Below, piece by piece: positions 1,940-31,900 of a stretch of 64,000 nucleotides of DNA. The notes under the pieces are model-generated. The model worked only from the letters and a program-made list of their open reading frames with translations, ran no database searches and was not told where the DNA came from. Source of the DNA: Vairimorpha necatrix (taxonomy: Eukaryota); assembly GCA_036630325.1 (NCBI GenBank), contig CP142737.1, positions 744,001-808,000 on the forward strand. Direction: 5' to 3'. The translations under genes and the position numbers were made by a program. Within the stretch, counting starts at the first letter, position 1. Each line of letters begins with the position of its first letter.

Positions 1940-2210
1940 AATAATATCTTACTTACTAAGCACTTTTCACAAGATGTCTTACACGTCTCGTCTTACAGTT
2001 TTCGGAGTTTCTTCTTGAATTCCTGCAATGGACTCTCAAATACTCCTTGCTGATCAGTATCGAGCCCATGTCTGACTGACATAGCCGGGCTTTCTAAAGT
2101 CATTTTAAGGACTGAAGTTTGTATATAAGCTTCAGTTCTGGGTTCTGATATGATTTATGAAATTAATTATTTCATTCAAGTCTTGCGTATCAGTTCTAAC
2201 CTCGCCGTTG
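1940..2210 (-). mobile_element. RLE non-LTR retrotransposon 3' fragment (subfamily B)
   Basis: Reverse complement reads TAAAATGACTTTAGAAAGCCCGGCTATGTCAGTCAGACATGGGCTCGATACTGATCAG..., matching 19405-19550 and 56881-57020. Confidence 0.75.
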
Positions 2211-5200
2211 AAAAACAATTAGTACCAATACTCATATGTTGATACAACTATAGACTGCGTATATATTTTTGCCGCGACGTAAATGATTCGATTAGAGTTA
2301 TTATCTACATACAGAGCGTACTCGCCTTCTTCTCGCGCATACTCGTTAAGGCTCCCATAATCTACGTTTTATGTACTGAATTTGACACTAAATCTTATTA
2401 AATTTCTGCCGGTGTTCGCAAAATCGTGTAGAATAGTTTTCCTGGTATTCCGCTTGCACTTAGTCTAATACACAAGTTAAGTCGCTGATTTTTTTTTGGT
2501 GCAATGCCAAAGGTCTTTTATAACCTAAATTGTATTTACATTCATTGTAGTAGTAAAGAATTTACAATTTTTGGATTTAATTGTGTTTAAACAAAAAGTT
2601 GCCTTTAAGACTGAACGCATACAATTTAATGTACAAACGCTGTGATGTATATTACTACATCACATAGGCAGCTGTCAAAACGATCAGAGGTCAAGACTAT
2701 CAACCGGCGAAATACTCAATTGGCCTGTAAAAAAGAGTTACACAAACATCCAAACAAACGAAAGTTGCATGGTCGATACTACATTCATAAGTACGCCAAT
2801 GTTTGTGTTTAGTGTTGACAAAAAATAATAAATTAAAAATAAAATATAAAAGAAAACTTTCAAATAAGAGTACGCAAAAGTGAACAAAATCGACCTTTAA
2901 ATAATCACAGCAAAGATTATAATAAACATAATTAAAGTAATTACATAAAAAACGATATAAAGTTTTACTATAAAATTGGCCATGTGCCCCGGATACATGA
3001 CAACGTATATACATTTTTTTCATTCTAAAGTACAAACTTCCTAGTCGTAAAAAAATGAATTATGCTTGTCAGTTATCAAGCCCGTTATTTGTATTATATT
3101 AAATTGAGAACACTAAGTCGGCGTTTTAATCTACCATAAATAGTTTATATTGCTTTTTTCCAAATCACCAGGCAAATTGTAATGCGTTTTGTGTTTTAAG
3201 ATGAAATGCTATTTGAAATATAGCATTAGTGTTTTGCTTTTTTTCTGTGCTTATTCTTTACGCCTTAAATATTGTCGTTTCTTCGATGATTTTTTTTACA
3301 AATATATTTCCAAATTGTAAGCTATCTTATTTTTCATGGGATACTATTATAAATAGCTATTTTATGGATCTTTGTATCTATACAGATGAACAACGAACTA
3401 TCTCATAAAATTTAATGAAGTGTTAAGTTAATTCTTGTATATTAATTTTAGTTTAGAATAAACAATTCTAGTTTTGTAGTAATAGTCCTAATATAACGCA
3501 CGATAGTTATAAAATACTATTTCAGATGTCGAAATTTTAAATAAAAATGGAATATATGATATGATATAGTCTTCTAATATTATCCCGCATTTTGTAAAGT
3601 TATACTATTGGCAATTAAATATGTATCGGCAATCTCTGTTTTTTGGCGCACAACAAACAACCTCCCATAATGCTTTAACTTTTCCGCTGTCTAGACGTAT
3701 AAAAATTATAAAATTTATTGTAAAACTACATATTTCTAATATAATTTATTAATGGTTGCTTTCCCTCGTCTTACGTGTTACTAAATGGACTTATATATCC
3801 TCTGTCATGCGTTTTTGGTTCTTCATGTCTGATCAAAAGCTACCTTTTCTTAATACCTGTCACATTAACATTTATTAAACGCCTTATATAGTAAGTGTAT
3901 TTAACTCTTACTGTTTTAATTTAACCAAGTTCAATTTGTCACTTTATCATAAAGATTGCATGTAAAAATATATTTTTTTTAAATATAATCACAACATCAA
4001 CAATAAATTAAAAAATTATAAAAAACTAATGAAGTTTTTTATTTTTTGTTAAGATTATTGTTTCAAATATTGACTTTGAAAAATAAAATCATTTTCTTAT
4101 TTTTTTTCTAAAATTAATTTTTTAACGAGAAGGAAATGATGACACGCAGAGGAAAATGGAAACCTTATTTGAGGTTTTAAACTATACAAAATTTGATTTC
4201 GGCCGCATGTTGAAGAAGTTTTTTGCAAGAAAAACACCATTATAAAAAACAAAGTAAAGAGTATATTCGGGATTTTTATGATTTTTTCATAATACATCAA
4301 ATACATATAAAAATAATTTTAGAATACTATATACTAGATATTTTCTTTCTGTTTTGTCTAGATATCACCAGATATGCATTGCGTAAGTTATAATCTTTTT
4401 TATTCAAAAAAGAAATTTAAATGCGTCTAATTTAAAATAATTTAAAAATAGAAAAAAACTTATCTTTAAAATGAATTTACTAGACAGTTAAACTGTAAAA
4501 AAATGTTAATGAAATAATTATATAAATATATGTGGTTGAAAACTAAATCGTTGCACCGTTGTCAAAAGGAAATAATATGTGCACATATTGCTATTAGTTA
4601 AAGTTCAAAAATAATTTATGAGAAACTATGGCTTTTGCTTTAGTATTGCATATGAATTAGCTTAAAATTTGCGAAATAAAAGGTAATATCTAGTTGGAAA
4701 GTTTTTCTACACGGAGTACAACGCCGTGTAGATGTTACTTTATTTAAATTTAAAGAACGGATAAAAATTTTTCGACTTTTATTGAAGAAATCAAGTAAAT
4801 TAAAAAAGCAATTTGAAGCTTGCTAACAGCTATCACTAAAACATGTGATTTATATATTTTTAAAGGCTTATGTATTTTTTACGTACCTATAGTTTTACAA
4901 TCAAAAACTCTAAACATTTAGATAATTGTATAGAAATACAATTGAAATCATGAAACACTAGAAAAGGTAATTACAAAGAATCATTGAACAAAATATAACA
5001 GAATAATTCTAGTACGTATTATGTTTCAACAAATTAGAATGTTTTTTGATATCACAATATTAGCATATAGTCTGTAGAACTTCTTCAAAAAGACTATTCA
5101 TTTATAAGACAAAAAATTAAGCCACTAAGTATTGAAAATATAAAAAAAATGTATATATATTGCATAAAAACTTTTGTATAAAAACAATTTGAAGACTACA

Positions 5201-7694: not shown

Positions 7695-7922
7695 TGTGGT
7701 ATTACAACCACATGTAAAATTCCATTTTCCCAAAATGGAATTTCTTAAATATTTTTTTTAAAAAATATTATTTTTCGACCCCAACAAAAAGAAAGAAGTA
7801 GATGCAGAAAAACAACAATAAACATTTTTTAAATAATAAACAAACAAGGCCCAAGGAGCCGTTTACAAGTAGTTTGCTAGAGGCCTACTTTCAACGAGGG
7901 TTCATCCCTCGTGACCACCTCA
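7695..7922 (+). repeat. 5' LTR of element 1
   Basis: Appears identical by eye to 11525-11752. Confidence 0.95.
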
Positions 7923-8764
7923 AGTTGAATTCAACGAGGAAAACTCATATCAAAGATGAAAAGAAAGAAAAAGAACATACAGAATTTGAAAAAAATATAC
8001 AAGGAACTGCAGTTAAGAGCAAAGTAAAAATTTATAACATTTATGATATTCAACAAGATTTAACCATAAATCAACTCCAAAAATTTGAGATGTTAGCTAA
8101 AGCAAATGATTGGAATGACGAACAAATGGCTTTGATTTACATGGATTGTATACACGATCCAAGAAAAGATTATTTACCATCAGATTCTTATATTGCATTA
8201 AGAAAGTCACTGTTGAATTTTATTTATCCACCGGAACAAAAAAGACATGCGATACGTGAATTAGATAATACAAGCCAAATAAGTTATTTTAGTATCAAAG
8301 AATATAAAGAAACAATCGAGGAAAGACTTAACAGTTATTCATATTATAATGATCTAAAAAAAAGAGAAGCCCTGCATAAAATGGAAGAAGTATTTTTAAA
8401 GGGACTAGGAGATTTCACACATTTAGAATTAACAAGACAAAATATGATAAGTAAGGAAATTTATGAAATTTATAATTACCTTGTTCTAATAGAAAATGAA
8501 ATTTTAACTAAAGTCGAGAAACCCAATACCCATTATGAAAAAGAAAATTTTGATTATAACAGAAATACTCAATTTAATAACCCGAAATGGTGCTCACTTC
8601 ATAAGAGTAACTATACTCATGATACCAGGCGTTGTTACGCCTTACAGAATAAAAAAAGATTGCCTGAATTTGCAGATCACAAGGATAAAAATATGATTAT
8701 TAAACAACGTAGCCAATGTCCCGAAGACATTACTGTAATAGGAAAAATAGGTAATAGGATGTGA
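7802..8764 (+). CDS. gag: Gag-like protein
   Basis: 320-aa ORF upstream of pol with a WCSLH...HDTRRC zinc-knuckle variant; starts inside the LTR. Confidence 0.8.
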   Translation: MQKNNNKHFLNNKQTRPKEPFTSSLLEAYFQRGFIPRDHLKLNSTRKTHIKDEKKEKEHTEFEKNIQGTAVKSKVKIYNIYDIQQDLTINQLQKFEMLAKANDWNDEQMALIYMDCIHDPRKDYLPSDSYIALRKSLLNFIYPPEQKRHAIRELDNTSQISYFSIKEYKETIEERLNSYSYYNDLKKREALHKMEEVFLKGLGDFTHLELTRQNMISKEIYEIYNYLVLIENEILTKVEKPNTHYEKENFDYNRNTQFNNPKWCSLHKSNYTHDTRRCYALQNKKRLPEFADHKDKNMIIKQRSQCPEDITVIGKIGNRM

Positions 8765-11514
8765 AAATGCTATTAGATAGCGGATCAAGGAGAAATTATA
8801 TTACTAAAAGCGCAGTTAATGAATTTAATTTAAAGAAAGAAGAATGTGCTAGAATTAAAACCATTTTTGGAAATAATGAAACAGCAGAATCCAATGAAAT
8901 GGTCAATACTGTTGTTACGATAAAAGAAAAACCTTTTGAAGTAAAATTTTGCGTTTTAGAAAAATTACCCGTTAATTTTGTTCTAGGGAACGAATTTCTT
9001 GACATGCATTGTGCAAAGTTAGATTACGCCGAAGGAACGGTAGAATTAGATGGACTACGAATTGACATGGTACATAAAGAGGGAAATGCTGAGGAATTGC
9101 TAGATAAAGAAATAGTTAATAAATTATGTCAGGTTAGCGAAAGCGAAGAATTTAATAAACTATTAGACTTCTATATTAAAGAAAACAAAAAATTTACCTC
9201 TATGAAAACAAACCTAGCTTCGTTTAATGTAATACAACCAGTTTTAAAAACAAAGAAGATTACCTATACAGTTCCATTTAAATATATTGAAAAGGCGAAA
9301 ATGGAAATTAAAAGACTTTTAGATGCAGATATAATTGAAAAGAGTTCTTCTGATATAATAAGCCCTGCATTTTTTATAGAAAAGAAAAATAAAGATTTAC
9401 GTTTAGTAGTAGATTATAGGGAAGTAAATAAAGCTTTACAAGATGACCCATGGATATTGCCCAAAATTGAGGATTGTCTAACAATAATGGGATCTAACAA
9501 ATTTTTTACGCAGATTGATTTAAGTAACGGATTTAATCAGATAAAAATAGATGAACAAAGCAAGAAATATACATCGTTTTTTTTATTAGGACAACAGTGG
9601 CAATACAAGAGAATTCCCTTTGGAATTAAGCCCGGTCCAAAATTATTTCAAAGAAATATTTCAAACATTTTAGGAGATTTCGATAATGTATTTGTTTTCA
9701 TAGATGATATTGTGATTTATAATAAAACAAAAGAAAGTCATTTAATTTCCGTAGAAAAAATACTAGAAACTTTATATAGCAAAAATGTCCAAATAAATTT
9801 CGAAAAATCGAAGTTTTTTCAACCAGAAATTGAAGTTTTGGGTTACAAAATAAATCACGAAGGAATTTTTCCAAAAACTAATTATTTAAATAATAGAATA
9901 TTCGAGAAAGAAATAAGAACGAAAAAGGATTTACAAAAACTGTTAGGAGTGATAAACTGGTACAGAAAGTTTATTCCAGATCTTTCGATAAGGATTAATA
10001 AATTAACAGATATGTTAAAAAACAAGAATGAAAATAAAATTAAAATAACGACCGAAATGAGAAAGGAAGTTGACAGAATTAAAGAGTGGATTTTAGGTAA
10101 TCATATGTTATCATTTCCCGATTACAATGGTAAATTTACATTACACGTTGACGCGAGCGAAATAGGTTTAGGAAGTACACTAACACAAAAGGATAAAATC
10201 ATTAGATATTATAGTAAAAAATTTTCTGGTCCAGAATTAAATTACAGTATTGTTGAGAAGGAATTTTTGGCAATTGTTTTATCTATGCTCAATTTTAAAA
10301 ACATAATCCAAGGATCTTATGTAGAGATTTATACTGATAGTAAAAATTGTATCTATGAAAATAAAATAGAAACATCAAGAATCAATAGATGGAAATTGTT
10401 GTTAAATGAATTTAGTTTTTCACTAAATCATATAGATGGTAATAAAAATTGTATGGCAGATAATCTATCAAGAAATTTCATTGGAATCGGAAATAATGAA
10501 AACAATAATCACGAAGAAATTATTAAACTAAACCAAGAATGTTGTCTCAGAGACAAAAACGGTAACTTTATATTTGATAAAGAAAAGCGCTACATAGTTA
10601 AATTTAACCAAGTAAAAAAATTTATATCATTTATGCATGAATTTGGACTTCATAGAGGAATTTCTACCCTATATTACAATATAAAGCGCTATTACTATAT
10701 AAAACGAATCTTTAAAGAAATAAGAAATACCATTAGCCAATGTAAAATTTGTGGAATTTATAAAAATAAGCATCCTAAAAAATATATCACTGGTAATATA
10801 GTAGCACAAAGAAAATTTGAAAAGGTAAGTACCGATATTTTCGGCCCTTTTAGTCTTGATAATTTTATTACTTCAGAAAGGAAAGAGGTAGGATATATCC
10901 TTACCATGACGGATATATATTCCCGATATACTAAACTTTATTTCTTATACACTATAAATTCAGACTCGGTGTTAAGATGTTTTGAAAATTGGATTACAAC
11001 TTTTGGGAAACCAACATCTATAATTTCAGACAATGGACGCCAGTTTATAAGTAACACAACTAAAGATTATTTAATAAAAGAAAAAATACTACATACCTTG
11101 ATACCCTCATACACACCAAGCTCTAATGGTGTATCGGAAGCAATAAATAAAACAATTTCATTCGCCCTGAGCTTCAACAAAGGTTTAAATATACGAGAAG
11201 TCGTTATGAAGGCAGAAAATGCGATTAATTTCAATTATAATAGAACGATAAAATCTTCTCCATTTTCAATCATTAATGGATTTAATATTTATGACCCATT
11301 ACAGAGAGATTACAATCATATTAGTGTCTTAAAAGAAGAAAAAATCTATTTGGTAAAAGTTGGAGACATTTGTAGGGAAAGAATATATAATGCTAAAAAA
11401 TTAGGACCAAAATGGAGCAAGAGGAAGAAGGTATTATGTGTTGGCAATAAAGGGTACTGGATTAAACTGAAGGGAAATAGTGGATGGACGCATATTAAGA
11501 ACATTAAACTCTAA
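8761..11514 (+). CDS. pol: Pol polyprotein (PR, RT, RNase H, integrase)
   Basis: LLDSGS protease, FIDD RT, DAS...EKE...YTD RNase H, HHCC and D..D-NG..E integrase motifs. Confidence 0.95.
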   Translation: MKMLLDSGSRRNYITKSAVNEFNLKKEECARIKTIFGNNETAESNEMVNTVVTIKEKPFEVKFCVLEKLPVNFVLGNEFLDMHCAKLDYAEGTVELDGLRIDMVHKEGNAEELLDKEIVNKLCQVSESEEFNKLLDFYIKENKKFTSMKTNLASFNVIQPVLKTKKITYTVPFKYIEKAKMEIKRLLDADIIEKSSSDIISPAFFIEKKNKDLRLVVDYREVNKALQDDPWILPKIEDCLTIMGSNKFFTQIDLSNGFNQIKIDEQSKKYTSFFLLGQQWQYKRIPFGIKPGPKLFQRNISNILGDFDNVFVFIDDIVIYNKTKESHLISVEKILETLYSKNVQINFEKSKFFQPEIEVLGYKINHEGIFPKTNYLNNRIFEKEIRTKKDLQKLLGVINWYRKFIPDLSIRINKLTDMLKNKNENKIKITTEMRKEVDRIKEWILGNHMLSFPDYNGKFTLHVDASEIGLGSTLTQKDKIIRYYSKKFSGPELNYSIVEKEFLAIVLSMLNFKNIIQGSYVEIYTDSKNCIYENKIETSRINRWKLLLNEFSFSLNHIDGNKNCMADNLSRNFIGIGNNENNNHEEIIKLNQECCLRDKNGNFIFDKEKRYIVKFNQVKKFISFMHEFGLHRGISTLYYNIKRYYYIKRIFKEIRNTISQCKICGIYKNKHPKKYITGNIVAQRKFEKVSTDIFGPFSLDNFITSERKEVGYILTMTDIYSRYTKLYFLYTINSDSVLRCFENWITTFGKPTSIISDNGRQFISNTTKDYLIKEKILHTLIPSYTPSSNGVSEAINKTISFALSFNKGLNIREVVMKAENAINFNYNRTIKSSPFSIINGFNIYDPLQRDYNHISVLKEEKIYLVKVGDICRERIYNAKKLGPKWSKRKKVLCVGNKGYWIKLKGNSGWTHIKNIKL

Positions 11515-11524
11515 GGGGGCAGAA

Positions 11525-11752
11525 TGTGGTATTACAACCACATGTAAAATTCCATTTTCCCAAAATGGAATTTCTTAAATATTTTTTTTAAAAAATATTA
11601 TTTTTCGACCCCAACAAAAAGAAAGAAGTAGATGCAGAAAAACAACAATAAACATTTTTTAAATAATAAACAAACAAGGCCCAAGGAGCCGTTTACAAGT
11701 AGTTTGCTAGAGGCCTACTTTCAACGAGGGTTCATCCCTCGTGACCACCTCA
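11525..11752 (+). repeat. 3' LTR of element 1
   Basis: Direct repeat of 7695-7922 following the PPT. Confidence 0.95.
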
Positions 11753-14700
11753 GGAAGTTATAGTAAATTTATAACGTGTAAAAAATCCTTGTTAATAGTA
11801 AATCCTTAGATAAATTGTGATTGAATATTTTGCAAAAATAGCACATTAATAATTAAAATAATAATAATTTAATTTGAATATGAAAGATTAAATTCATTAC
11901 GAGATGAAATTCTCAAATATAGCGCTAAATTATATTATTGTTTGGAGGTTTATGTCAACGAGTAATTTATCTCTTTTATTAAATTCAGTATCCATATGGG
12001 TACTCATATACTTTGATTTTATAGAACAATTTAAAGATCCTTTAGGCAAATTGAATTTTAATTCTTGTTTTAAATTATCTTAGTTTTATGTATCAAGAGC
12101 ACGTGTTTTGTGCATTACGTATTACCATGTTTGTGTTTATTACTTTATTATTGTAATATCGATCTATGTTTTTTAAAAAACTATTCTTATTATTTAAAAA
12201 AGTCAAATTATAATTTCACCCTCGCCAATAAGATGAACTATTGTGTGTATATGTTAAATATATTTACATAATTATTTAAAGTTTAGTGCAAAAACACCAG
12301 TAAATTTTTTTTGTTCAAGCCTCAATGTTTTTCAATATAAAAATTTTAAAGCCTCAGAGAGCTTATTTTGTAACATCTAGCCTTTTATAATTTTTTGAAG
12401 TTATCAACCACTTGCTCTTAAAAATAGTACAATGGATTAAATATACCAGAAATACAAGCTAATAAGGCAGGAGAAGCCGCTTATAAAAATAAAGTGCGTG
12501 TAGAAAAATCTTTATAAGTTGATGGTGGGAAATAAGCTACAATAAAGTTGATGCTTAAAAAAGTTTTCTATTTTATATGGTAAAGTTTTTTTTTGAATAC
12601 GGTTTAATTAAATGAAAATTAAGGTTTCTTTTACTAAAAAAAATTTGCTATATGTTGTATTTTGGGATTTAGTGATCATGGCGAATTTATATAAAATATT
12701 CGTATTGTATAAAGAAAAGAAAAAAAAAGAGATGTTTAAGTTATGTTTATTTTATTCGTTGTTTTATTTTCCTTAATTGTTTTTTTATCATCTATGTTTT
12801 ATCAAAAAAAGTCAAAAGAGGAAAGAATATGAGATTACTAGATTTTATGAACGAGAGATTGTTTAGAAAACTTATTTTAGCAGACTATTTGGCCAATTTC
12901 TACTCATATTTAACCGTATAATATAGATTTTTTTTACTTTTCTCATGTTAATCGTTGATCGAGACGACTGTAGGGATGAAGGAAGTAGAACTACATAGTA
13001 GAAAATGACCATAATACGAGATAATTTATTTCGATATGTAATGAACATAACAGTAAATATAATTGAAAAAAATTTATTCAAATTTGCATTTCACAGATGC
13101 CTAAATTCAAAAATTATATCTATTTTTTATCTTTGCGTCATTATAATATTATTATTGTAAAAAAGGTTTTTGATTAGATTATGTGGTTTAAAACAGACTT
13201 TGATATGGTTAAAATTATTTTTATAGTATTTACATTAAATCGTCTTCAGAGGAATTCTTGATTTTTATAGACCAATGTTTATAAATAAAATGTTTGTGCT
13301 CTTTCAATCATTCTTAGGCCTTATATTACATCCCCCTTACAAGATTTGTTATGGACTTCCGAAAGCAAATTCCATCACTTTTATAATTGATTTCTTCTTC
13401 ACAATGCCGTTTTAGACAATATAACTTACTAAAAATAATATGCCTAGACCAAGAAGTTAAAGGATGTCATTTCAATTTGAAATTTGGTTTTATGGTTATA
13501 TTGAGTTTTTTTTTGGTTTTCGCACCTTCACATTCTTTCGCTTTGATTTATGAAAAACAGGATTAAAAACAAAAAAATCTAGATTTAAATTAGTAAGCGG
13601 GCTAAAGTAAAAATTATACGTTTTTTGGAATACTGTTTTTAAAAATATTTTTTACGAGCACAAGGTTGTACTATAATTAAAAACGCTTTTAAAAATGTTT
13701 TATGTAAATTTTAAATGGTAAATAGAAATTTGTATGGTGGTTAATTTTACAAATTGTATTGTTTTTCCTCATTTTCTTAAAAACGACCTTTATAAAAAAT
13801 GTTTCATATAACTTCTATGAAAAAATAGGCATTAAACTACATTATATGCAATACTAATCAATCAGATATTAGAACGAATTTTATGTGAGATTGCTCATCG
13901 TCTAGTCTTTTATCCACTTGCTTTATTAAAAAGAAAGAAAAATTCAAAAATTAATTTTTTAAAATGATCGCACAATTCTTTTGTAGATTTTAATATGTCG
14001 AATACGTCATATAATAATTTTATGGCGCTTTTAATTAAACTACTTTTCGTTTTGAAATTATATTTCAAACATAAAGCAATAAACTATAACATAAACAGAA
14101 AATTTTAATTGCAGAGCTGTACCTTTAATATTTAGCATCATTTGAATTATTGACGTGAATATTCCTAAAAAATCTTTCTAAATCTTTTATAGAGCTATAT
14201 AAAAAATTTCACCCCAAAACTTACTTTTTCATATTATTTATTAAATAATGTACGAAAAAATATTTTATTTTAAAATATTCAATATTACCCGATATTTAAT
14301 CAATATTCTTTATAATTATGCAAAAATATCATATAAATTTGTCCTCATGTTGATTCATTTCTTTATTTTAAGTTTATAAAATTTAAAGAAGTTTCTGAAC
14401 AGGATGAATTAAATTTAGATATATCAGAAATACAAGGAACTAAAAAAGAAATCGCTCTTCACAAGCTACAAAGTGCTTTTGAATTGCATCATGACAGGCG
14501 GAATTTGATTGATGATACTAGTATTGAAATTGGCGGGTTAAATGGATACTTGGTCCATTTGCGAAATAATTTTCTAATATTTGGTTAGATAGCATTAAAA
14601 ACATTTGCAAAAGGTCGGAAGAGGATCCGTAATTAGTTGTGTTATTAGACTTGGTAATAAAAGCCGAGGAGTGTACAAACTATTCGTTAAAGATGCAAAA

Positions 14701-15369
14701 GGAAAGATAATATCAGAAAACAACAATGGCGAAGTCGAGTTTTATGTTTTGGTCGTATTTTTTGTCCTGATGCGTATACTAAGCCATTTGATGATATGAA
14801 CACTGAATTAAAAAACAAAATAAGTCATAGGTGAGCAGCAATTAAAAGTTACAAGATTTTCTAAAAGAAAATATATTTAATTAAACTCGTTCTAATTTTT
14901 TTACACGATTTGACAATAGTTTTTGAAATAATTTCAATAACTTTACACTTTTTCGCAAAATCTCAAAATTTTTATATTTTCACTACATGCACATTTACAA
15001 AAATTTATAGACATACACAACACATGATTCCAATGCATTCTTAAAGCAAAATCTTCTCTTAATATTAACATAAAGCATGATTTAGATAGTATTGATGGTT
15101 TAGAAAATAAGTCAAGCGAGGTCTAAATCTTGTTCTATTTGAAAAAAGATGTAAAGAAATAAATGATTCATAGAAAGTTATTTTATGTTACAATAACTTT
15201 AAAAAAGTTGAAAAAAATATGATTTTTTTTCTTAATTAAAGAAATTATCACGACGACAGATTGTTGTTTTGTATTTATGTGACAATATATGCATCAAATA
15301 AGATTTAAAAAATATTTAATCCTATTCGCATTCTAAGTCCCTTTTTAGGTAAAAATGCTAAAAATTAAA

Positions 15370-15417
15370 TGTATTTATTTATCATAATGGAGGTAAAAAT
15401 TATCAAAATATATAACA
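15370..15417 (-). repeat. 3' LTR of element 2 (48 bp)
   Basis: Identical to 18499-18546 and directly adjacent to the PPT. Confidence 0.92.
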
Positions 15418-15440
15418 TCCCCCCTCCAAGACGGTTAGTC

Positions 15441-15770
15441 TCACTTTATCCTTAACCCAAGCAGACTTTTTAGATCATAGTGCCTTTTCTTTACATATCT
15501 TCCATTTACTAACTTAACTATATAAGAATCATTGCCACATCTCTCTATAATTTTCCCACTCTCTAAAAACCTACCTTTCGAATATTTATCCGCACCTTTC
15601 AAGTTTTCCTTCTTAGCTACTCTCACGTACTCACCTACTTTAAATTTTTCCCGTTTCCCCATGTTAAACAGTTTTCCATATTTCCCCTGTGGGCTATTTT
15701 CAATCATTACATGTCCAGTTTTATCCTCTGTCGCTTCTATTGGTGTACATTTTAGTGCCGTGTGGTAAAA
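15441..15770 (-). CDS. Integrase C-terminal part of element 2, split off by a frameshift
   Basis: Shifting frame at the A4 run 15767-15770 gives YNMS/YHTALKCTP... continuing into FKVGEYVRV (ORF 15441-15707). Confidence 0.8.
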   Translation of the reverse strand, partial: FYHTALKCTPIEATEDKTGHVMIENSPQGKYGKLFNMGKREKFKVGEYVRVAKKENLKGADKYSKGRFLESGKIIERCGNDSYIVKLVNGRYVKKRHYDLKSLLGLRIK

Positions 15771-18499
15771 CTCATATTATATTTTTCAATGCTTCCCATG
15801 ACCTTCTCTGCAAATGTACCTTCTTTAGTCTTCAGAATGCTCTCTCGCAGCGTACCTATAACCCTCTCGACTCTGCCATTACTCCTGTGTGATTCGACAC
15901 TTACTTTTCTATGTTTAATTTCTAGTCTGTTACACAACTCTCTAAACCCCTCATTGATAAATTCTCGCCCATTATCCGTTATAATCTCTTCGGGCTTTTT
16001 TCCTTGTTCACACAACTTACTTAAAAATTCTGTCACATTCTTTCCAGTCTTGTTCTCCATTACCGTGCCCCATACTCTTCGAGTGTAATAATCTATCGCA
16101 ACCAATACGTATTTACCTGCGTCTCTAAAATCAATGAGATCCAAGGCAACCTTTTCTAAATAACGTGTAGTATCTACAAACTCACATCCACCGAGTCTTT
16201 TTCTATTATATATTTGACATTGTACACACTTTCGAATTGTCTCATTTATGTCCTTCTTTATTCCGGGCCAAGAAAATCTTTCCCGCATCGCGTAATATAC
16301 ACTTGTCATACATCTATGTCCAACTTTTTCGTGGTATTCCTGCATCAAACTTTCCCTTGACTCTTCTGGTGGTATCTCGACTTTCCGTCCTGAATCAAAT
16401 CTCCAATATTTTTTTCCTTCTGCGTCATCGACGTGCGCTTTCCATTTACCCTCTATCTGCTTGGCGGTCCTTTCTCTGATTTTCTTTTTCTTTTCATCGT
16501 CTTCCATATGTATCCTGCTTAACGCGTCAGCCACCACCATTTCTTCTGGTTTCTTATATTCTATGGTGAAGTCAAATTCCTGGATCTTTTCAATCCATCT
16601 ATTTATTCTATTGTTATTAAAACACGGTTTATTTCTAATCTCAACCAAGGCTTTATGGTCCGTCTCGATTTTAAACTTCCTACCGCGCAACTCGTATTCA
16701 AATCTTTTTATCCCCCAAAATACCGCGTACATTTCTTTCTCCGATATAGTATATCTGGTCTCTGTAGGTGTTAACTTTTTTGAACTCCATTGGATTGCTA
16801 CCCATTTATCTTTATCGTTCTTCTGAAGTAACACGGCTCCTATCCCTACATTGCTCGCGTCCGTTCTCAATATAAATTCCTTCCTATAATCAGGCAATCT
16901 AAGTTTCCCCATCGCTCTCAAAACATCTTTCAGCTCTAAAAACTCTCTATTCATTTCAACCGTCCATTCCCACTTCTTATCTTTACCTCTCAAGCTATCT
17001 GTCAGATGAATAGTTAATCCCGCGTAATTCTTTATAAAGTTCCTAAACCATCCTGTCATTCCTAGGAATCTTCGTGTTTCACTTACACTTGTCGGCTGCG
17101 GGAATTCCAACGCCTCGTTCTTCTTTATTTCATTCGCTTCAATATCTGTACCATTCAATGTGACTCCTAAGAGCTTAACTAACTGTTGGCTAAACTGTAT
17201 CTTCTCAATATTTAATCTCATTTTATGTCTTTTTAATCTTTCCAATGCTTCTATAACTAGCTTGTCATGCCTTCTTTTAGTTCTAGCGTGTATAACGATG
17301 TCGTCCATATATACCTCCACTCCTTCTCCTTGTAAATCTTCAAATATTTGGTTCATTATTCGTTGTAAAATCTGCGGGGAATTTTTATATCCCATTACCA
17401 TACTGTTCCATTCATATACCTTTCTGTTAAATTCAAAGGCCGTTTTGTGCTTATCCTCTTCTTCAATCTCTACGTGGTAAAAGCCTTCCTTCAGATCTAT
17501 AACGGTAAACCATTTAGACCCCTGTGTGGCTCTAACGATGTCCCTAATATTTGACAACTCATACGGATCTTTTTCAACTAAGTCATTTAAACTCATTAGA
17601 TTACTTACAAGCCTTACTCCTCCGTTAGGTTTTACTATAGCTCTAATTGGGTTCCTCCACTCGGATGTTGATCTTCTTATAATCTTTCTTTCTTCCAAAC
17701 TTTTTATATATTTTTCAGTTTTTTCCATCAACGCCTGTGGGATAGTTTGTCCTCTTTTAACTACTTTTTTCCCTGGTGGCGTCTCAATTTTACATTTCTC
17801 TATCTTACAGTGTACGATCTCTTCCTGCTGCAAGTCAAAAATTTCTCTAAACTTCGCTTTTATATCTTCAATGACAAGGCCCTCTTCTATTCTATCCTCT
17901 CTCATTCCTCTCCTTTTTGAATTTTGTTTACGTTTTGCTTCTCCGCATTTCCTATATTCTTGTGCGCTAAGTTCTGTGCTTGTAGATCCACTCTCTTCAT
18001 GAACAATTAAATACTTGTTAAAATGTTTATTTTTATTATCTTCTTCTTTCCTCTTCCTTACGAAGCAATCTCTTGCCATGTGCCCAAATCTACCACAGTA
18101 AAAACAATCTCTACTTCTTACTCTCGTAGTTTCTTCCCTTATTTTTCTTAATGTTCCTCTGTTTGCCAGCTCCTCTCGAACTGTTCCTCTAACCGACTCT
18201 GCAATTATTTCCATCATCTTACTTTTGTCTTCTTCTTCCTTCTTTTTTAATTCGTCCTTTCTAACCTCCTTTTCCATTTCTTCAATAATTAAGGACCAAC
18301 TATCTTCTTTTTTAATTCTTTCTACCATAAAGTTCTTTACTTCTTCCGAACCCATTTCATAAATTCTTGCCTTCCATAGAGACTCATCTACTCCATCCAA
18401 CTCTAGCTTATAAACTATTCTTTTAATTTCTTGTAACATTATTCTGGCCTCTTGACCACAGCCATCACTTGTTGACTCTCGATTTGGTATCGCCCCCAT
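15752..18499 (-). CDS. Gag-Pol polyprotein (short Gag with CCHC, RT, RNase H, integrase; no visible protease)
   Basis: CFYCGRFGHMARDC, YMDD, TDAS, ETDH, H..H..C..C, LDLID..TDNG..ER; start could be 18499 or 18514. Confidence 0.9.
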   Translation of the reverse strand: MGAIPNRESTSDGCGQEARIMLQEIKRIVYKLELDGVDESLWKARIYEMGSEEVKNFMVERIKKEDSWSLIIEEMEKEVRKDELKKKEEEDKSKMMEIIAESVRGTVREELANRGTLRKIREETTRVRSRDCFYCGRFGHMARDCFVRKRKEEDNKNKHFNKYLIVHEESGSTSTELSAQEYRKCGEAKRKQNSKRRGMREDRIEEGLVIEDIKAKFREIFDLQQEEIVHCKIEKCKIETPPGKKVVKRGQTIPQALMEKTEKYIKSLEERKIIRRSTSEWRNPIRAIVKPNGGVRLVSNLMSLNDLVEKDPYELSNIRDIVRATQGSKWFTVIDLKEGFYHVEIEEEDKHKTAFEFNRKVYEWNSMVMGYKNSPQILQRIMNQIFEDLQGEGVEVYMDDIVIHARTKRRHDKLVIEALERLKRHKMRLNIEKIQFSQQLVKLLGVTLNGTDIEANEIKKNEALEFPQPTSVSETRRFLGMTGWFRNFIKNYAGLTIHLTDSLRGKDKKWEWTVEMNREFLELKDVLRAMGKLRLPDYRKEFILRTDASNVGIGAVLLQKNDKDKWVAIQWSSKKLTPTETRYTISEKEMYAVFWGIKRFEYELRGRKFKIETDHKALVEIRNKPCFNNNRINRWIEKIQEFDFTIEYKKPEEMVVADALSRIHMEDDEKKKKIRERTAKQIEGKWKAHVDDAEGKKYWRFDSGRKVEIPPEESRESLMQEYHEKVGHRCMTSVYYAMRERFSWPGIKKDINETIRKCVQCQIYNRKRLGGCEFVDTTRYLEKVALDLIDFRDAGKYVLVAIDYYTRRVWGTVMENKTGKNVTEFLSKLCEQGKKPEEIITDNGREFINEGFRELCNRLEIKHRKVSVESHRSNGRVERVIGTLRESILKTKEGTFAEKVMGSIEKYNMSFTTRH

Positions 18500-18546
18500 G
18501 TATTTATTTATCATAATGGAGGTAAAAATTATCAAAATATATAACA
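18499..18546 (-). repeat. 5' LTR of element 2 (48 bp)
   Basis: TGTTATATATTTTGATAATTTTTACCTCCATTATGATAAATAAATACA immediately followed by a TGG PBS. Confidence 0.92.
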
Positions 18547-18904
18547 TTAAATGCCAAAAACAAAGACGCCATGCGACTGCCGATGCGTTTTAAATTAGGT
18601 TAAATACATAAAATAACATTATGTAACATGTATTTTTATCAATCAGTGACAGAACAATCACATGTTTTGAGGATGTTTTTTACTTTTTAATTTTTTTTGT
18701 CAGTCGAACATCCAATAAAAATTTCAATAAGTTTTTACCACCTTTTAACATAAAAACATTACCAATTTAAATATTTTTTCAATATAACTACTAGTGAAGA
18801 CGACATTAGCAGGTGTCAGGCATGAATAATAATAGGTTTAGAGAAGTTATATCTCTATAAAGCACTTACAGAAATATTTTTTATAGAATTAATTTTTTTT
18901 TAAA

Positions 18905-19560
18905 TAATTAGATCATATGGCCACACAATGTGATCGTATGCTTTCACATGATTACATGAGATGGCAGAATGAGGCACTGCGATGCATCCACCTGCAGTAG
19001 TGTAAGACGTATGGTCTATCCCATGCCAAAAGAATTAGAAATCATTCAGTCCAGGAATGTGTAGCTAATGAGTATGTTGAGATACGAGTCGATAGTAGGA
19101 TACATTCAAGTATTAAAATAAAGTATAACAAGCCTGATATACTAATTGTAGACAAGTTGAGGAAAGAAGTGATCGTTGTAGAAGTTGAAATCACAATTTT
19201 TAACAACCTCCATGCTGTAGAAACAGAAAAGAAACATAAATACGACTTGCTCGCAAATCATGTGGCTTCTTTCTACAAATAAAAGCCGAAAATTATTTCT
19301 TATGTGATGACGTGGGATGGAATAGTAACTAATTTTCACCGTACGCATATCAAAGTGCTCAGATTAGAACCCTGAACGGAAGCATATATACAGTCAAGAG
19401 TCCTTAAAATGACTCTAGAAAGACTAACTATGTCAGCCAGACATGGGCTTGATACAGATCAGGAAGGGGTTTTCGAGAGCCCAATGAGTGAATCTCAGAA
19501 GGAAGTCCTGGAACTGCCAGATGAGACTGCAAGCGTATCTTGTGAAAAGTAATTAATAAG
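18905..19560 (+). mobile_element. Degenerate 5'-truncated RLE non-LTR retrotransposon (subfamily B)
   Basis: Interrupted translation LDHMATQCDRMLSHDYMR..NEALRCIHL, IRVD, KPDILIVD, VEVEI, YVMTWDG, YIQS, homologous to 780-1330. Confidence 0.85.
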
Positions 19561-19795
19561 CCGAATATTATACCCAAATAAATTATTTATCATTTTTTAA
19601 ATAATTAATGTTCCATATGAAAGGATTAATTTATCTTAAACAATCAATGTTTCTAAAAATTATTAATTTTTCTTAAATAATCAATAATTCTTATGTAATA
19701 ATTAATTTTTAAACAATCAATGTTCTTATAAAAATTTTTAATTTTATAAACAAATGATAATTTTCTCTATACTAAATGTTTCTTATTAAATTTTT

Positions 19796-20722
19796 TTAAT
19801 TATTTTTTTGTTTGATATATTTTAGTGCATTTTTCCCTGCCACACATCCAGATGCTGCCGCTGTCACTGCTTGCCTATATTTTTTATCAAACACATCTCC
19901 ACACGCATAAATCCCTTCTTCTTCAGTTTGACATTTTTCATCCACTTTTATATATTTATCATCACTTAAAATATTTGAAAAGTTTTCCTCTATAAATTGG
20001 GTATTGGGCGTATGCCCAATACCAAAGAATAACCCGTCTAGTTCTATTTTTTTATTATTGTCTAATAAAATATATTCTAATTTATCTGTACCATGGGCAG
20101 ATTTCAAATTATACGGAGTTAATATTTTTATATTGTCAGTATTTTTCACTTCTTGTAGTTTATCAGGTCTACATCTAAATTCTTCTCTCCTGTGTATTAA
20201 ATAAACCTTTTTACATATTTTTGATAAAAATAAGACTTCTTCCATGGCCGAGTCTCCTCCTCCAATTACACAAGTTATTTTGTCTTTATAGAAATATCCA
20301 TCACATACGGCGCATGCACTAATTCCTTTTTGCCATAGTTCATTGTCTCCTGTTCCTTCCACATAGAGTCTTTTTGCTGACGCCCCAGTGCTTATTATTA
20401 TACATTCTGTTTTGTAAGTAATCTTCTTAGTCTTGACTAAGAAGATCCCTTCTTCTTTTTGTATATTGATGACTGTCCTGTCTATTTGTCTTATTCCTAG
20501 TTTTTCTACTTGTTCGTACATTGTAGTCATGAGATCTGGTCCTTGTACTCCTTTAGGGTACCCTGGGTAATTATCAACATGTGTTGTAGTAGTGAGTTGC
20601 CCTCCTGGTCCTATGCTGCCTATGAATCCACCTCTTAACATTAGTGGGTTCATTTCTTGTGTGTAGATTGCGGCGGAGTATGCAGCTGGTCCACTGCCAA
20701 TTATTATTATTTTTTCGATCAT
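19796..20722 (-). CDS. TRR1: Thioredoxin reductase (low-molecular-weight, fungal/bacterial type)
   Basis: GSGPA FAD motif, CAVC redox centre, GGGDSAMEE NADPH motif, GD..YRQA. Confidence 0.97.
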   Translation of the reverse strand: MIEKIIIIGSGPAAYSAAIYTQEMNPLMLRGGFIGSIGPGGQLTTTTHVDNYPGYPKGVQGPDLMTTMYEQVEKLGIRQIDRTVINIQKEEGIFLVKTKKITYKTECIIISTGASAKRLYVEGTGDNELWQKGISACAVCDGYFYKDKITCVIGGGDSAMEEVLFLSKICKKVYLIHRREEFRCRPDKLQEVKNTDNIKILTPYNLKSAHGTDKLEYILLDNNKKIELDGLFFGIGHTPNTQFIEENFSNILSDDKYIKVDEKCQTEEEGIYACGDVFDKKYRQAVTAAASGCVAGKNALKYIKQKNN

Positions 20723-28644: not shown

Positions 28645-28916
28645 GAAACATTTATAATTAAATAAAGGAGATGGATAAATTTTCTTGCTTGATATCGTGT
28701 ATTGTAAGCATAAAAAGAATAAAGACATACACTTATTGATTATGCTACTACAAACCAATGGATTAAATGATCAATAAAAACAATGATTCAATATTTTAGT
28801 TGTTGTAAACATCGTTTATAAAAAATTTGTTTTATATCATTTACTTTTTAAAAAAATTTGATAAAAGAAGAATTAGTAATAACTCATATTCGCATGCATC
28901 TGTCATTTTATGGGTC

Positions 28917-31900
28917 TGTCATGCGGTAAACCCACGCTGACCATTAGAATCCCTAAACCCAAAGACTTTTGACATGCGTTCGGAATAAATTAAATGTTTG
29001 ACACTTTTTGGTGTACAAACATTTATGACGTAAATATGTGTCTTACACATATTTCTACAATTTCTGTTTTCTTTTTATTTCCCTCCAAAATGGAAATATG
29101 TTTAATTAATATTTGCTAAAAAGTATTTAAGCAAATTGCCCCAAGAAGGGCACGATGAGTAATAAACGTTTAATTGATAATTCATCTTCTTTAAGTAAGC
29201 CCGCCAAGTATTGTCTAGAGACTAACTCGACAACAAGTGGCGACAACGGAGAGATTTCAGAAAAAGATTCCCTTGGCCTGGTAATGGAAGGATTGAAGAA
29301 TTTAGCACTAACTGACAAACTGAGTGAATTCAATGGTTATGAGAATGAGGATCCCAAGGCCTTTCTAGATCAATTTCTGGCATTTGAGACAAAATGGGCT
29401 GCAAATTATCTGCACCATAAGATTACGAGTATGCTGAAAGGAAAAGCAAGCCTGTGGTTTAAAGCCCACGAAAAGAAATTGGAAACCTATAAAAAATTTA
29501 TTGAAGGCTTTAAAAAGAGATTCGTCAAGGAAGTAAAAGTTACAGAGAACGCAGAGTTCTTTTGGAGATGTATCCAGGAAGGACCCAAGACCTCAGATGT
29601 AATCTCTTATTACTATAGTTTACGAATTTACGGAGAAGAAAATGAACTTTTATATACAAGAGCTAAGGAAAGAATCGTGGAGTTAGTAGAGGATGAACAT
29701 TTTAGATTTCATCTCAACACGTGTGAAAATTGGGACGAACTTGAAGCCTACCTGGAAGAAAACGAAAAGCCGATGAATAAAAAATTACGTTATTTCGGAA
29801 GAAAGCAAAGCATTACTACATTTCCAAGAAAAGAATTTGCAAAGAGAGATCAACCCGTTAACAAAGTAGTCGCAGAGTCGACAGGGCGATCAATATCCGA
29901 CGGAATGAGGAAAGTCCTTAGTATCTCAGCTAAGGTGAAGAATCAGGAAGATAATAGACCAAGAATTGAGTTGGTCTATGGCGATAATATTGTGAATGCA
30001 CTTTTAGACACAGGAGCTACAGTGACGGTAATTAAAAAAGCAGTAGCGGTACAACTCGACGCTCCCATTCAGAAAGAAGCCGGAGAAATTAAGGGCTTAA
30101 AGGGAGGGCGTCAGATTGTAGGTAGATGTTACCTAAACATAAAAAAGAAAGGTGAAAAACAGCCGAAAGGTTTTAATTTCTTAGTAGTCGAAGATATGGA
30201 GGAATCGATGTTGTTAGGCATTGAGGAGATTCGAAGACTAAATCTATTTTCATATCTTGCTCAGAAGAAGCAAAAAGATAAAATCACAAACAAAAATATT
30301 GTAATGGAAGCTAAGTTTGAAAACGAAGTAATAGAATCCTGTACTGATATTCAAGAATTATTAGAAGACATTGATTGCGACGAAGACAATACCAAACAAG
30401 AATTTAAAGACTTGATATCTGAATTTGGAGGCGTGTTTCAGGATGAAAATAAACAGATAAATATTGATATAGAACATGCAATCGAGCTGATGGAGGGTTC
30501 CAAAATGTCTATATGTCCTAAGTATAAACGATCTCCGGAAGAACATGAGACAATTAGGACAGAGGTTCAGAAATTCCTAACTCAAGGTTTGATTGAAGAA
30601 AGCCAGAGCCCATATGTGTCACCAGTGGTACTAGTAAAAAAAAAGGATGGTGGGTTGAGATTTTGCATCGACTTTAGAAGACTAAATAAAATTACTATAC
30701 CATACGAATATCCGATCCCGCGTATCGACGAAACTTTGGATCAATTGCAAGGCGCAAGAATTTTCAGTGTAATGGATGTAGAAGCAGCTTACAATCAAGT
30801 AACAGTTAAAAAGGAGGACCGATTTAAAACAGCATTTTACACTAGAGAAGGAGTTTTTCAATGGAAAAAGATGCCGTTTGGGCTTATTAACGCCCCCTTT
30901 ACATTTCAAAGAATAATGAATAAATATTTTAAACAGTATATGCATAAATGCGTCATGGTTTATTTGGATGATATTCTAGTATTTTCAAAAGATCACAAAT
31001 CTCACTTAATACATCTGAGACAGATTCTCGAAATTATCAGAAAAATAGGATTTAAGTTAAATAAAAAAAAATGTAAGTTTGTGCAGGAAAAAGTCGAATT
31101 CCTAGGTTATGAGGTAATTAACGGTAAAGTAGAAATACCGTTACAACAAAAAATGAAAACTATGGAATGGAAGACACCGCAGACAAAGAAGGATATCCGG
31201 GCATTTAACGGATTTTCGGCATTCTTCAATAGGTTTATCAAGGATTATGCACAAAAGATGTTACCCCTATATGAATTACTAAAAGGAAAGGAAAAAACTA
31301 AGTTTGTTCTAAGCGAAGAAGCATCAGAAGCTTTTGAGATAATGAAAGCAGAAATAAGAAAGGCGTCGGGATTACTTTTACCTAACTTTGATAAAAGGTT
31401 TTATATCGACACTGATGCATCGAACTTGGCAATAGGAGCCGTATTATCTCAATTGGATGACTACGAAAATAAATTAATGCCTGTAATCTGTTTCTCGTTG
31501 AAGCTTTCAGCTGAAAAAATTAATTATACAGTGACCGAAAAAGAGTGTTTGGCAGTAATTTGGGCGGTTAAAAAGCTTCGAGTATACCTTACTAGAGAAT
31601 TTACCATAAGAACTGATCATCAGGCCTTGAAATGGCTGTTAAATTTGAAAGAAACATCAGGAAGGTTAATGAGGTGGATACTCACTCTTCAAGAATATAA
31701 TTATAAGATCGAATACCTACCAGGAAAGATCAACGTGATCGCAGACGCAATGAGTAGGATAGTGATGAATGTCGCTGAAGAGAGACCCAAGGAAATTTCA
31801 GAGGAAGCTAAATTGGAAGCTATTATGAGAAGTCATAATGACTGTGGACACGGTGGTGTGGATGCCACGTATACCTTATTGAGAAAGGACTTAATCTGGA

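Follow-up and report, generated by a model that had tools for sequence, protein, structure and literature searches.

The window, a stretch of 64,000 nucleotides from Vairimorpha necatrix (contig CP142737.1, positions 744,001 to 808,000), contains an LTR retrotransposon of 3.2 kb on the minus strand at positions 15370-18546. The features of this copy are listed below, from the 5' side of the element to its 3' side.

18547..18551, unstranded: TSD on the 5' side, TTAAA
18499..18546, minus strand: 5' LTR, 48 bp, TG..CA, a length common to 11 of 11 near-identical copies
18518..18522, minus strand: CCC-type host promoter motif, LTR nt 25-29, CCTCC here and CCCCC in most copies; putative role (PMC2803860)
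18512..18514, minus strand: first in-frame ATG, LTR nt 33, at the same place in subfamilies A-E
18503..18508, minus strand: AATAAA, LTR nt 39-44, also coding Asn-Lys; putative poly(A) signal, with the 3' LTR copy at 15374-15379
18486..18498, minus strand: PBS, 13 nt complementary to tRNA-Pro(AGG)+CCA (tRNA gene at L128), in the coding frame
15752..18514, minus strand: Gag-RT-RNaseH-IN ORF, 920 aa here with an early stop after a frameshift near 15770; 1023 aa in uninterrupted copies
18460..18477, minus strand: RNA hairpin 1 inside gag, candidate packaging/dimerisation signal
18445..18458, minus strand: RNA hairpin 2 inside gag, putatively functional
18248..18445, minus strand: helical module, residues ~24-89, similar to one capsid lobe on suggestive evidence only (Z 6.3), with a long helix after it
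18065..18106, minus strand: single CCHC zinc knuckle
17873..18061, minus strand: linker in the protease position, charged, low-confidence model, no D[ST]G
17156..17635, minus strand: RT core, PF00078 (E 6e-33), YMDD at 17300-17311
16574..16891, minus strand: RNase H, PF17917 (E 3e-32)
15441..16372, minus strand: integrase, PF17921 and PF00665, H2C2 and D-D-35-E core, C-terminal part out of frame here
15428..15442, minus strand: 15-nt conserved motif just upstream of the PPT, with self-complementary arms; by eye also in retro L of Anncaliia algerae
15418..15427, minus strand: PPT, G-rich, adjoining the 3' LTR with no spacer
15370..15417, minus strand: 3' LTR, 48 bp, same sequence as the 5' LTR
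15365..15369, unstranded: TSD on the 3' side, TTAAA

The preliminary description of this locus had noted identical 48-bp TG..CA repeats, a TTAAA TSD, and a TGG PBS and PPT abutting the repeats. All of these are present; TGG lies directly inside the 5' LTR, and the exact match of the LTR pair runs one base beyond each end, after which similarity ceases. The entire LTR of the window element is 48 bp, as had been claimed. The counts for the V. necatrix genome are lower bounds, and at least 11 near-identical copies (99% identity) were found with LTRs of 48 bp, one 3' LTR being 49 bp. Their 5-bp TSDs are perfect and all different in 11 of 11 cases, so that the 48-bp termini recur with other TSDs, and none of these copies has LTRs beyond 49 bp. 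The idea of a minimal-LTR lineage, and not one damaged copy, was also upheld by five further families that have 38-49-bp LTRs and TSDs of their own. The LTRs measure 48-49 bp in four sister subfamilies and 38 bp in a sixth family (family F), in which 8 of 10 loci were resolved with 38-bp LTRs and a perfect TSD. Among the paired elements of the genome (at least 51), the 3' LTR was called at 48-49 bp in 49 of 51 and the TSD was perfect in 34 of 51. A degenerate LTR pattern gave at least 161 matches genome-wide, while its reversed control gave none. The supposition that LTR finders miss such a lineage at default settings is supported for LTRharvest, whose default minimum LTR length of 100 would skip it (PMC2253517 Table 1).

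The insertion had also been called recent. The copies do differ little, with a mean of 23 differences per 3175 bp among the 11 (two with none), and this is better evidence of youth than LTR identity, which over 48 bp dates an insertion weakly; dating by LTR identity was dropped because 48 sites are too weak. Copy-private LTR variants occur in both LTRs of one copy (L001, L002 and L007; L201 and L203), as reverse transcription predicts. Mapping of U3/R from the variants common to L002 and L009 failed, as the interiors of both were not close. An uninterrupted ORF of 1023 aa is found in 7 of the 11 copies of this 3175-bp element, and the window copy is probably inactive. Between subfamilies, the RT/IN pN was 0.14-0.26 and synonymous sites were saturated.

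The single ORF begins at nt 33 of the LTR, crosses the PBS and ends 17-23 nt short of the 3' LTR; its domain order by Pfam is RT, RNase H and integrase. The ORF start lies inside the LTR in subfamilies A-C and E and in family F, and also in 19 of 21 TSD-bounded elements with longer LTRs. The N-terminus M-x(1-5)-[HNDY]-M-[AGDEV], the in-frame footprint of ACA|TGG, was present in 16 of 33 full-length homologues, which are related and not independent sequences, compared with 0 of 58 outgroup proteins. Gag before the knuckle comprises only ~130 aa. Residues 24-89 aligned with the Arc C-lobe at Z 6.3 (rmsd 2.4, 64 residues), below the trust level of the tool and behind helical bundles. For the N-terminal module, Foldseek returned weak rows for the Ty1, Arc and PEG10 capsid CTD, none at E<=0.001, and the Atlas leads were PF22909 (0.92) and PF03732 (0.86). 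These models are suggestive of a Gag reduced to about one capsid-like lobe. The second Foldseek match of the modelled protein was Ty3 RT, with 29% identity.

Searches for a protease in the window element gave no Pfam match at E<=0.1, and none at E<=1 among 25 of the 55 families listed, beyond which a weak single-member match is possible. D[ST]G was not found before RT in the element ORF, and the knuckle-RT linker was modelled without a fold. An FDSG string before the integrase was rejected as a protease site, as its middle residue is not conserved. Protease Pfam matches were found in 0 of 53 close homologues versus 20 of 60 distant ones, and the protease motif in 0 of 52 versus 21 of 50 (parsed). 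In a quick RT-RH tree with SH-aLRT only and without copia or BEL outgroups, the protease-less clade had a support of 97 and was sister (99) to protease-bearing families with LTRs of 64-87 bp. The protease labels of this tree were set by regular expression, and the five noPR rows outside the clade are misses (four were picked from PF13975 matches, and P0061 has a protease Pfam); P0013, inside the clade, was labelled PR from a VVDTG string and has no protease Pfam. At the sequence level, the clade lacks an aspartic protease.

The element has Metaviridae traits, namely TG..CA direct repeats with a 4-6-bp TSD (5 bp and AT-rich here), a tRNA PBS with a PPT, and RT-RNase H-IN. The RT of the clade was nested among protease-bearing RT-RH-IN elements in the quick tree without copia/BEL outgroups. 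The element appears to derive from Gypsy and would function in the same manner, although it is no canonical member, having no protease. The likely explanation of the whole locus is an LTR retrotransposon derived from Ty3/Gypsy and recently amplified, belonging to an old clade that has 38-50-bp LTRs and no protease.

An equivalent is already tabulated as retro L in the 2014 Anncaliia supplement. Parisot et al. (2014) classed Aalg retro L of An. algerae as Gypsy, and their supplement gives an LTR of 50 bp, an ORF at 32-3049 starting inside the LTR, and a total of 3127 bp. By eye on its consensus, the LTR begins TGTTATATAT, CCC stands directly before the ATG, the ORF runs through ACA|TGG, the knuckle is followed by RT with no space for a protease, and the same 15-nt pre-PPT motif is present. 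It differs in that the PBS starts TGGCG and AATAAA is upstream of CCC; moreover, retro L is represented by a tabulated consensus and not by individual TSD-bounded copies. In the main text of the 2014 paper, "protease" and "primer binding" have no occurrences, and short LTRs go without discussion in at least 12 of its 16 LTR passages. We found no description of short-LTR or protease-less microsporidian elements in the literature searched, and PMC7313128 and PMC13174016 contain no relevant passage; the Nbr paper, other subscription papers, Repbase and bioRxiv supplements lie outside this search and may describe them. The LTR length outside V. necatrix is known from retro L and one unpaired 38-bp candidate in L196. 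Relatives were found at two loci in metagenome contigs and three loci in genome contigs, none with both LTRs, and none were found among viral contigs.

Protease-bearing microsporidian Ty3/Gypsy elements share the single ORF, usually starting in the LTR after CCC. In An. algerae the ORF starts inside the LTR in 43 of 50 complete consensuses (our own count, Table S1), and the protease-bearing families have LTRs of 45-272 bp. In the protease-bearing sister families of V. necatrix the tRNA PBS likewise adjoins the LTR. However, the protease-bearing elements (L189-L191 and others) keep the D[ST]G protease, have ~165-200 aa of Gag before the knuckle and LTRs of 64-341 bp (21 TSD-bounded elements measured), and are without the pre-PPT motif. 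The Nbr elements of Nosema bombycis are protease-bearing microsporidian Ty3/Gypsy elements. Ty3 of Saccharomyces cerevisiae agrees in its RT-RNaseH-IN order, CCHC nucleocapsid, tRNA priming and 5-bp TSD. Its LTRs measure ~340 bp, its capsid has two lobes, it encodes a protease of its own, and a frameshift links gag and pol, whereas the V. necatrix element has 48-bp LTRs, apparently about one lobe, no protease and one ORF. SMART/TRIM elements are similar in their very short TG..CA LTRs, PBS, PPT and TSD, and the miniature element FRetro129 has 85-bp LTRs, no coding and is non-autonomous (PMC3281118). The LTRs of the present clade are about half as long, and it codes for a conserved RT-IN protein of 1000 aa. 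Membership in TRIM/SMART (no coding, < ~1 kb) was rejected, since this element is 3175 bp long and 7 of its 11 copies hold a 1023-aa ORF.

With a probability a little short of even, the protein would act uncut, as one chain of capsid lobe, NC, RT, RNase H and IN. Nearly as probable is that the element is semi-autonomous: it would provide RT, RNase H and IN itself, while cutting, and perhaps co-packaging, would fall to the protease and capsid of co-resident Gypsy families, or the cutting to a host protease. The genome has at least 146 PF13975 matches above the cut-off, many in open frames of >1200 aa, and linker residues 161-211, modelled with low confidence, are probably disordered and so would be accessible; their sequence, however, is not conserved (pN 0.45-0.54). 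The RNaseH-IN junction was modelled as a continuous helix and hairpin and is ~60 aa long, where three of the four parsed elements with a protease have 25-30; this speaks against cutting in trans. Cutting in trans agrees with the failure of Ty3 protease mutants to transpose. Yet purifying selection acts on the N-terminal module as well as on RT, RNase H and IN, across the subfamilies and distant microsporidia; helper-dependent elements, by contrast, typically lose their coding capacity.

In the LTR, CCC sits 3 nt upstream of the in-frame ATG, and host ORFs have the same layout: CCC was found <=15 nt from 44 of 85 first ATGs versus 14 of 282 internal ATGs, a control that includes leftover transposon ORFs. 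The earlier likening of CCTCC to the host CCC motif fits the other 10 near-identical copies, which have at least CCC and mostly CCCCC, but CCTCC itself is private to the window copy. It had further been proposed that promoter, R and poly(A) signal are all inside the 48 bp. The layout is consistent with the LTR as a host-type promoter, but a full U3-R-U5 is doubtful because AATAAA ends 4 nt before the LTR end and moves among families (it precedes the ATG in family F and CCC in L189). AATAAA is also weak evidence because an A/T 6-mer is cheap in a repeat of 83% AT, and U5 may be absent. We consider it probable that the LTR is built like a host gene start, in which ~29 nt of AT tract and CCC would form the U3/promoter and transcription would begin just before the ATG. 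The chances are about equal that the last 16-20 nt of the LTR are R and code the first residues; cleavage would then occur at or beyond the LTR end, with little or no U5, and minus-strand strong-stop DNA would jump by pairing with those 16-20 nt.

It is unlikely that the 48 bp represent only attachment sites and a strand-transfer repeat, with RNA supplied by read-through from flanking host DNA and CCC and AATAAA incidental or translational. Transcription overrun is frequent in microsporidia (PMC2803860), and the LTR transcription start is deduced from sequence. Since both LTRs of the window copy had CCTCC at insertion, the parent RNA that was copied lacked CCC there, although CCTCC could stem from the parent's 3' LTR or from copying. 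Read-through is further opposed by the order and spacing of AT tract, CCC and ATG, which are kept in the five subfamilies A-E with saturated synonymous sites, family F, the protease-bearing sisters and retro L.

The match between the PBS and tRNA-Pro(AGG) is 13-14 nt, against 8 for the next best of 34 tRNA types compared, and judged by this complementarity it is a priming site for tRNA-Pro(AGG). The PBS of family F matches tRNA-Arg over 13 nt, a tRNA switch. Both observations favour tRNA over self-priming of the Tf1/sushi type, for which the complementary stretch available in the LTR is ~7 nt in most copies and shorter in the window copy. The two hairpins 3' of the PBS showed two-sided change in 6 of 12 pairs (0 of 500 shuffles), in nine sequences of coding DNA from six lineages, the structure being picked after viewing them; they probably exist as RNA structure. 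The pre-PPT element is reported as a conserved motif because folds of lower energy than its hairpin existed in most 48-nt windows. Pairing of this motif with the 5' arm of tRNA-Pro was dropped, as family F and retro L keep it with other PBSs. The hairpins and the motif may carry cis functions (packaging, dimerisation, PPT selection) displaced from the LTR and leader.

That the real LTRs are longer and the window copy is an artefact, truncated or misassembled, or a single deleted copy is hardly credible, and no support for it was found. LTRs of 38-49 bp, flanked by TSDs that differ from those of the window copy, are present in all 11 near-identical copies and likewise in the five further families. 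The layout recurs in the 2014 consensus, which comes from a different genus, and public run X1 yielded a 3101-bp contig that covers the element interior and differs from it at 17 letters, although this contig may depend on the same assembly. No empty-site junction was found in X1, whose coverage of the flanks was mostly absent.

One genome holds a graded LTR series, from 341 to 64 bp with protease and then 49, 48 and 38 bp without it. This series suggests that LTR shrinkage tracked the compact promoters of the host and began before protease loss. It is possible, though somewhat doubtful, that the clade is self-sufficient, combining a polyprotein that stays uncut (one capsid lobe, a coiled coil and a single knuckle, then RT, RNase H and IN) with a 38-49-bp U5-less LTR with coding R, a PBS in the ORF, and packaging and PPT signals in coding sequence. 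If this is true, it would come near the minimum of an LTR element and would also dispense with proteolytic maturation, which is regarded as general in the group. A low bound is set on the required LTR content, and a retrovirus-like element can be stripped far and still spread. These natural, young, multi-copy elements make testable the shortest R for strand transfer and the need for a protease or a two-lobed capsid. The 100-bp minimum LTR in tools would miss these families, and therefore the counts and ages of microsporidian elements may be understated.

The element lies on the minus strand, and its termini are as the preliminary description had them, since the identical TG..CA repeats, the TTAAA target-site duplication (TSD), the TGG and the tract inside the 3' repeat are all present in the window sequence:

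15370-15417 and 18499-18546, minus strand: terminal repeats (LTRs), 48 bp each, identical, TG..CA, from sequence comparison

TTAAA flanks the repeat pair on either side, the 5' repeat is directly followed by TGG, and a G-rich tract adjoins the 3' repeat. A domain search of its single minus-strand frame found, in order, zf-CCHC, RVT_1, RNase H, Integrase_H2C2 and rve; protease families gave no match at E<=0.1. The window copy has a frameshift near 15770, by which the ORF stops at 920 aa and the integrase C-terminus is out of frame, and it alone misses the CCC triplet of the LTR. Close homologues are labelled as from Vairimorpha, Nosema granulosis, Enteropsectra breve and Nematocida minor, indicating that the host is a microsporidian. 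The element appears to work like Ty3/Gypsy elements and to descend from them, but it is a variant and not a canonical member because the protease, one of their defining features, is missing.

A genome DNA search with the window element, scored for the best 40 of 354 candidates, found at least 11 copies that are 99% identical to it, besides many others at 69-95%. The LTRs were 48 bp in 11/11 near-identical copies, one 3' LTR being 49 bp, and these copies had 11 different TSDs, each perfect and of 5 bp; the LTR pair was identical in nine and the 1023-aa ORF intact in seven. The 48 bp are thus the whole LTR of a lineage, as had been proposed. Among 57 loci examined, 55 had a match to the primer-binding site (PBS) and 51 an LTR pair. 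The 3' LTR was called as 48-49 bp in 49 of these 51 (the exceptions measured 44, a degenerate repeat, and 68, a miscall), and the TSD was perfect in 34. A degenerate LTR pattern gave 161 matches genome-wide versus 0 for the reversed control. The length is also below the LTRharvest default minimum of 100 bp (PMC2253517), as expected for an LTR that finders would miss.

Table. LTR and element lengths in the protease-less short-LTR clade
Subfamily A (window copy): LTR 48 bp; element 3175 bp
Subfamily B: LTR 49 bp; element 3219 bp
Subfamily C: LTR 49 bp; element about 3143 bp
Subfamily D: LTR 48 bp
Subfamily E: LTR 49 bp; element 3184 bp; 11 copies measured; same clade as A-D
Family F: LTR 38 bp; element about 3075 bp; no protease; loci L199-L208 (G000 C7:742721 and others), 8/10 resolved; same clade

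Copy-private variants were found in both LTRs of the same copy at five loci (L001, L002, L007, L201 and L203), which fits the paired LTRs that reverse transcription yields. Subfamily A is a young family because its copies differ by 0-35 substitutions (mean 23). This upholds the youth earlier claimed for the insertion, for which identity over 48 LTR sites alone was insufficient. The target sites behind the 44 TSDs of A-E consist nearly entirely of A/T, and position 5 is A in 37 of them, a raw count not corrected for genome composition. In a public sequencing run (X1) compared with window 14300-19600, the element interior was present at ~99.4% identity and depth 20. A flank piece matched at 92% with a depth of 2.5, and nothing covered the direct flanks; coverage could be low, the strain could differ, or the element could be a shared one.

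In the window copy, the 5' LTR is followed by a PBS of 13 nt whose complement is the 3' terminus of tRNA-Pro(AGG) with CCA added (its gene lies at L128), and the second-best of 34 tRNA types matched 8 nt. The PBS of subfamilies B and C matches the same tRNA over 14 nt, that of family F tRNA-Arg over 13 nt, and those of the sister families tRNA-Ala over 11-12 nt. The CA of the 5' LTR adjoins the PBS with zero spacer. Two protease-bearing elements lie in the same window. The one at 7695-11752 (+) has 228-bp LTRs and a 'PBS' that is a perfect 12-bp palindrome; such palindromes (12-14 bp) occupy this position in 14 other measured elements (including L154-L161 and L167-L171), and their carriers sit in one well-supported clade of the RT-RNaseH tree. 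Self-priming through a palindrome is known from Repbase entries. The second, a full Gypsy element at about 28895-33160 (+), has 319-bp LTRs, a 5-bp TSD and an ORF start within the LTR.

The order within the LTR is constant in A-E: TG, AT tract, CCC (nt 25-29), ATG (33-34), AATAAA (39-45) and CA. This ATG is in frame, the ORF reading MINKYMGAIPNR; the second Met straddles the LTR/PBS junction, and in A-C the ORF ends 17-23 nt upstream of the 3' LTR. The start M-x(1-5)-[HNDY]-M-[AGDEV], as required where ACA|TGG is read in frame, was found in 16/33 homologues that are full-length and come from other assemblies, versus 0/58 outgroup proteins; these homologues are related and do not count as 16 independent events. 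In host genes, CCC lies <=15 nt from the first ATG in 44/85, versus 14/282 for internal ATGs, the host set including some transposon ORFs. E. cuniculi is reported to have 5' UTRs of <7 nt, CCC before the start and a loosely recognised AAUAAA (PMC2803860). A thioredoxin-reductase-like gene (PF07992) at 19796-20722 (-) of the window has an upstream T-tract/CCC/ATG close to that of the LTR.

From this layout, LTR nt 1-29 would be U3 and the final 16-20 nt R plus coding sequence. AATAAA stands 4 nt from the LTR end and the usual spacing to cleavage is about 20 nt, so cleavage would take place in the flank and U5 would be absent; against this reading, AATAAA precedes ATG in F and CCC in L189, a protease-bearing microsporidian element. 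Of the promoter and poly(A) signal first placed in the 48 bp, the putative promoter agrees with the CCC-ATG layout of host genes, but a complete U3-R-U5 in this length is doubtful, as AATAAA stands very near the end and shifts in position in related families. A 16-20-nt repeat would still be enough for strand transfer. We propose as the most likely course that Pol II would start near LTR nt 30 and the RNA would be translated from nt 33 into a single protein, with tRNA-Pro annealing inside the ORF. Strong-stop DNA of 16-20 nt would then jump to the 3' LTR, RNase H would leave the PPT, both 48-bp LTRs would be rebuilt, and integrase would insert the element into AT-rich DNA, duplicating 5 bp. 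The sequences show the termini, PBS, PPT, TSD, ORF layout and lack of a protease; the start site, the 3' end, what the hairpins do and how the protein is processed are inferred.

Two predicted hairpins follow the PBS:

18460-18477, minus strand: hairpin 1, 3' of the PBS, in coding sequence
18445-18458, minus strand: hairpin 2, 3' of the PBS, in coding sequence

In an alignment of nine sequences, which represent six lineages, pairing holds in 94% of cells, and 6/12 pairs show two-sided change (0/500 shuffles; slid controls 0-2), in a small sample whose structure was picked from the same sequences tested. RNAalifold predicted the same two helices. A 15-nt motif with self-complementary arms lies upstream of the PPT in 43/51 A-D elements by a strict pattern, and also in E (4-nt loop), F, the contig L196 and, by eye, retro L of An. 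algerae. None of the measured protease-bearing families has it, and its position relative to the stop codon differs in each subfamily. The hairpins and this motif may serve packaging and PPT selection. The contig noted at L196:2713-2762, from a MAG titled Clostridium, encodes a clade member ending with the motif, a PPT and a candidate 38-bp LTR; the contig is probably mis-binned microsporidian DNA.

The knuckle-RT linker is charged, 60-85 aa long and without D[ST]G, with pLDDT <50 in the predicted structure. Protease Pfam families were found in 0/53 close homologues (36-87% identity) versus 20/60 distant matches, and the protease motif in 0/52 versus 21/50 parsed. For 27 aligned clade members the listing covered 25 of 55 families, and no protease was among these 25. 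A quick RT-RNaseH tree (68 rows) places the protease-less elements on a single branch (support 97), one member of which was wrongly labelled by regular expression. The sister group of this branch (support 99) consists of protease-bearing families whose LTRs measure 64, 69 and 87 bp. Between subfamilies, RT and IN show pN of 0.14-0.26 with saturated synonymous sites, indicating purifying selection.

The model of the N-terminal 130 aa has one long helix and three short ones. Residues 24-89 matched the C-lobe of Arc at rank 5 (Z 6.3; 64 residues, rmsd 2.4), and weak Foldseek rows (Ty1, Arc and PEG10 capsid CTDs) and Atlas leads (caulimovirus coat, Retrotrans_gag) were returned, all below trust thresholds; the model suggests that this module may be one capsid lobe. 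The RNaseH-HHCC junction (residues 663-728; window about 16330-16530) measures ~60 aa in the clade, where a helix and a hairpin are conserved, and 25-30 aa in 3/4 parsed protease-bearing elements. At L194:50-2581 and L195, a clade member without LTR pairs is fused, reading frame kept, to the end of an RNase H fragment that belongs to another element, either a nested insertion or a chimera.

We give slightly less than an even chance to a polyprotein that works uncut. Cleavage in trans by another protease is a credible if somewhat doubtful reading, and at least 146 protease matches over cut-off occur in the genome. That the element is self-sufficient, combining an uncut polyprotein with a U5-less, partly coding LTR, is put forward tentatively, with more doubt than trust.

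Other features of the window are a 789-aa ORF (58061-60430, -) that overlies a long tandem array of 24/36-nt units and has a hydrophobic N-terminus, two MITE-like stretches with inverted termini of 33-47 nt (54462-55140 and 52405-53568), whose like also sits upstream of the LTR at locus L054, and a segment duplicated 8.2 kb apart (47609-48326 and 55786-56526) that begins in a tRNA-Met gene (55740-55812).

Parisot et al. (2014, PMC4202319) list An. algerae retro L with a 50-bp LTR and an ORF at 32-3049 of 3127 bp, retro S with a 45-bp LTR and CK with a 73-bp LTR. By our own count from their Table S1, the ORF starts inside the LTR in 43/50 complete consensuses; the main-text passages available to us hold no remark on short LTRs or in-LTR starts. 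SMART elements differ in having 85-bp LTRs and in being non-coding (PMC3281118; PMC10886601). A literature search, with subscription papers, Repbase and bioRxiv supplements outside it, found nothing on short-LTR or protease-less microsporidian elements, and the accessible parts of PMC11358816, PMC7313128 and PMC13174016 added nothing on them.

Among TSD-bounded protease-bearing elements of the same genome, LTR length ranges from 64 to 341 bp and the ORF starts in the LTR in 19/21. Because of this, short LTRs with an in-LTR ORF start appear, from sequence comparison, to be a microsporidian trend that predates the loss of the protease, and the protease-less clade appears to be its extreme.
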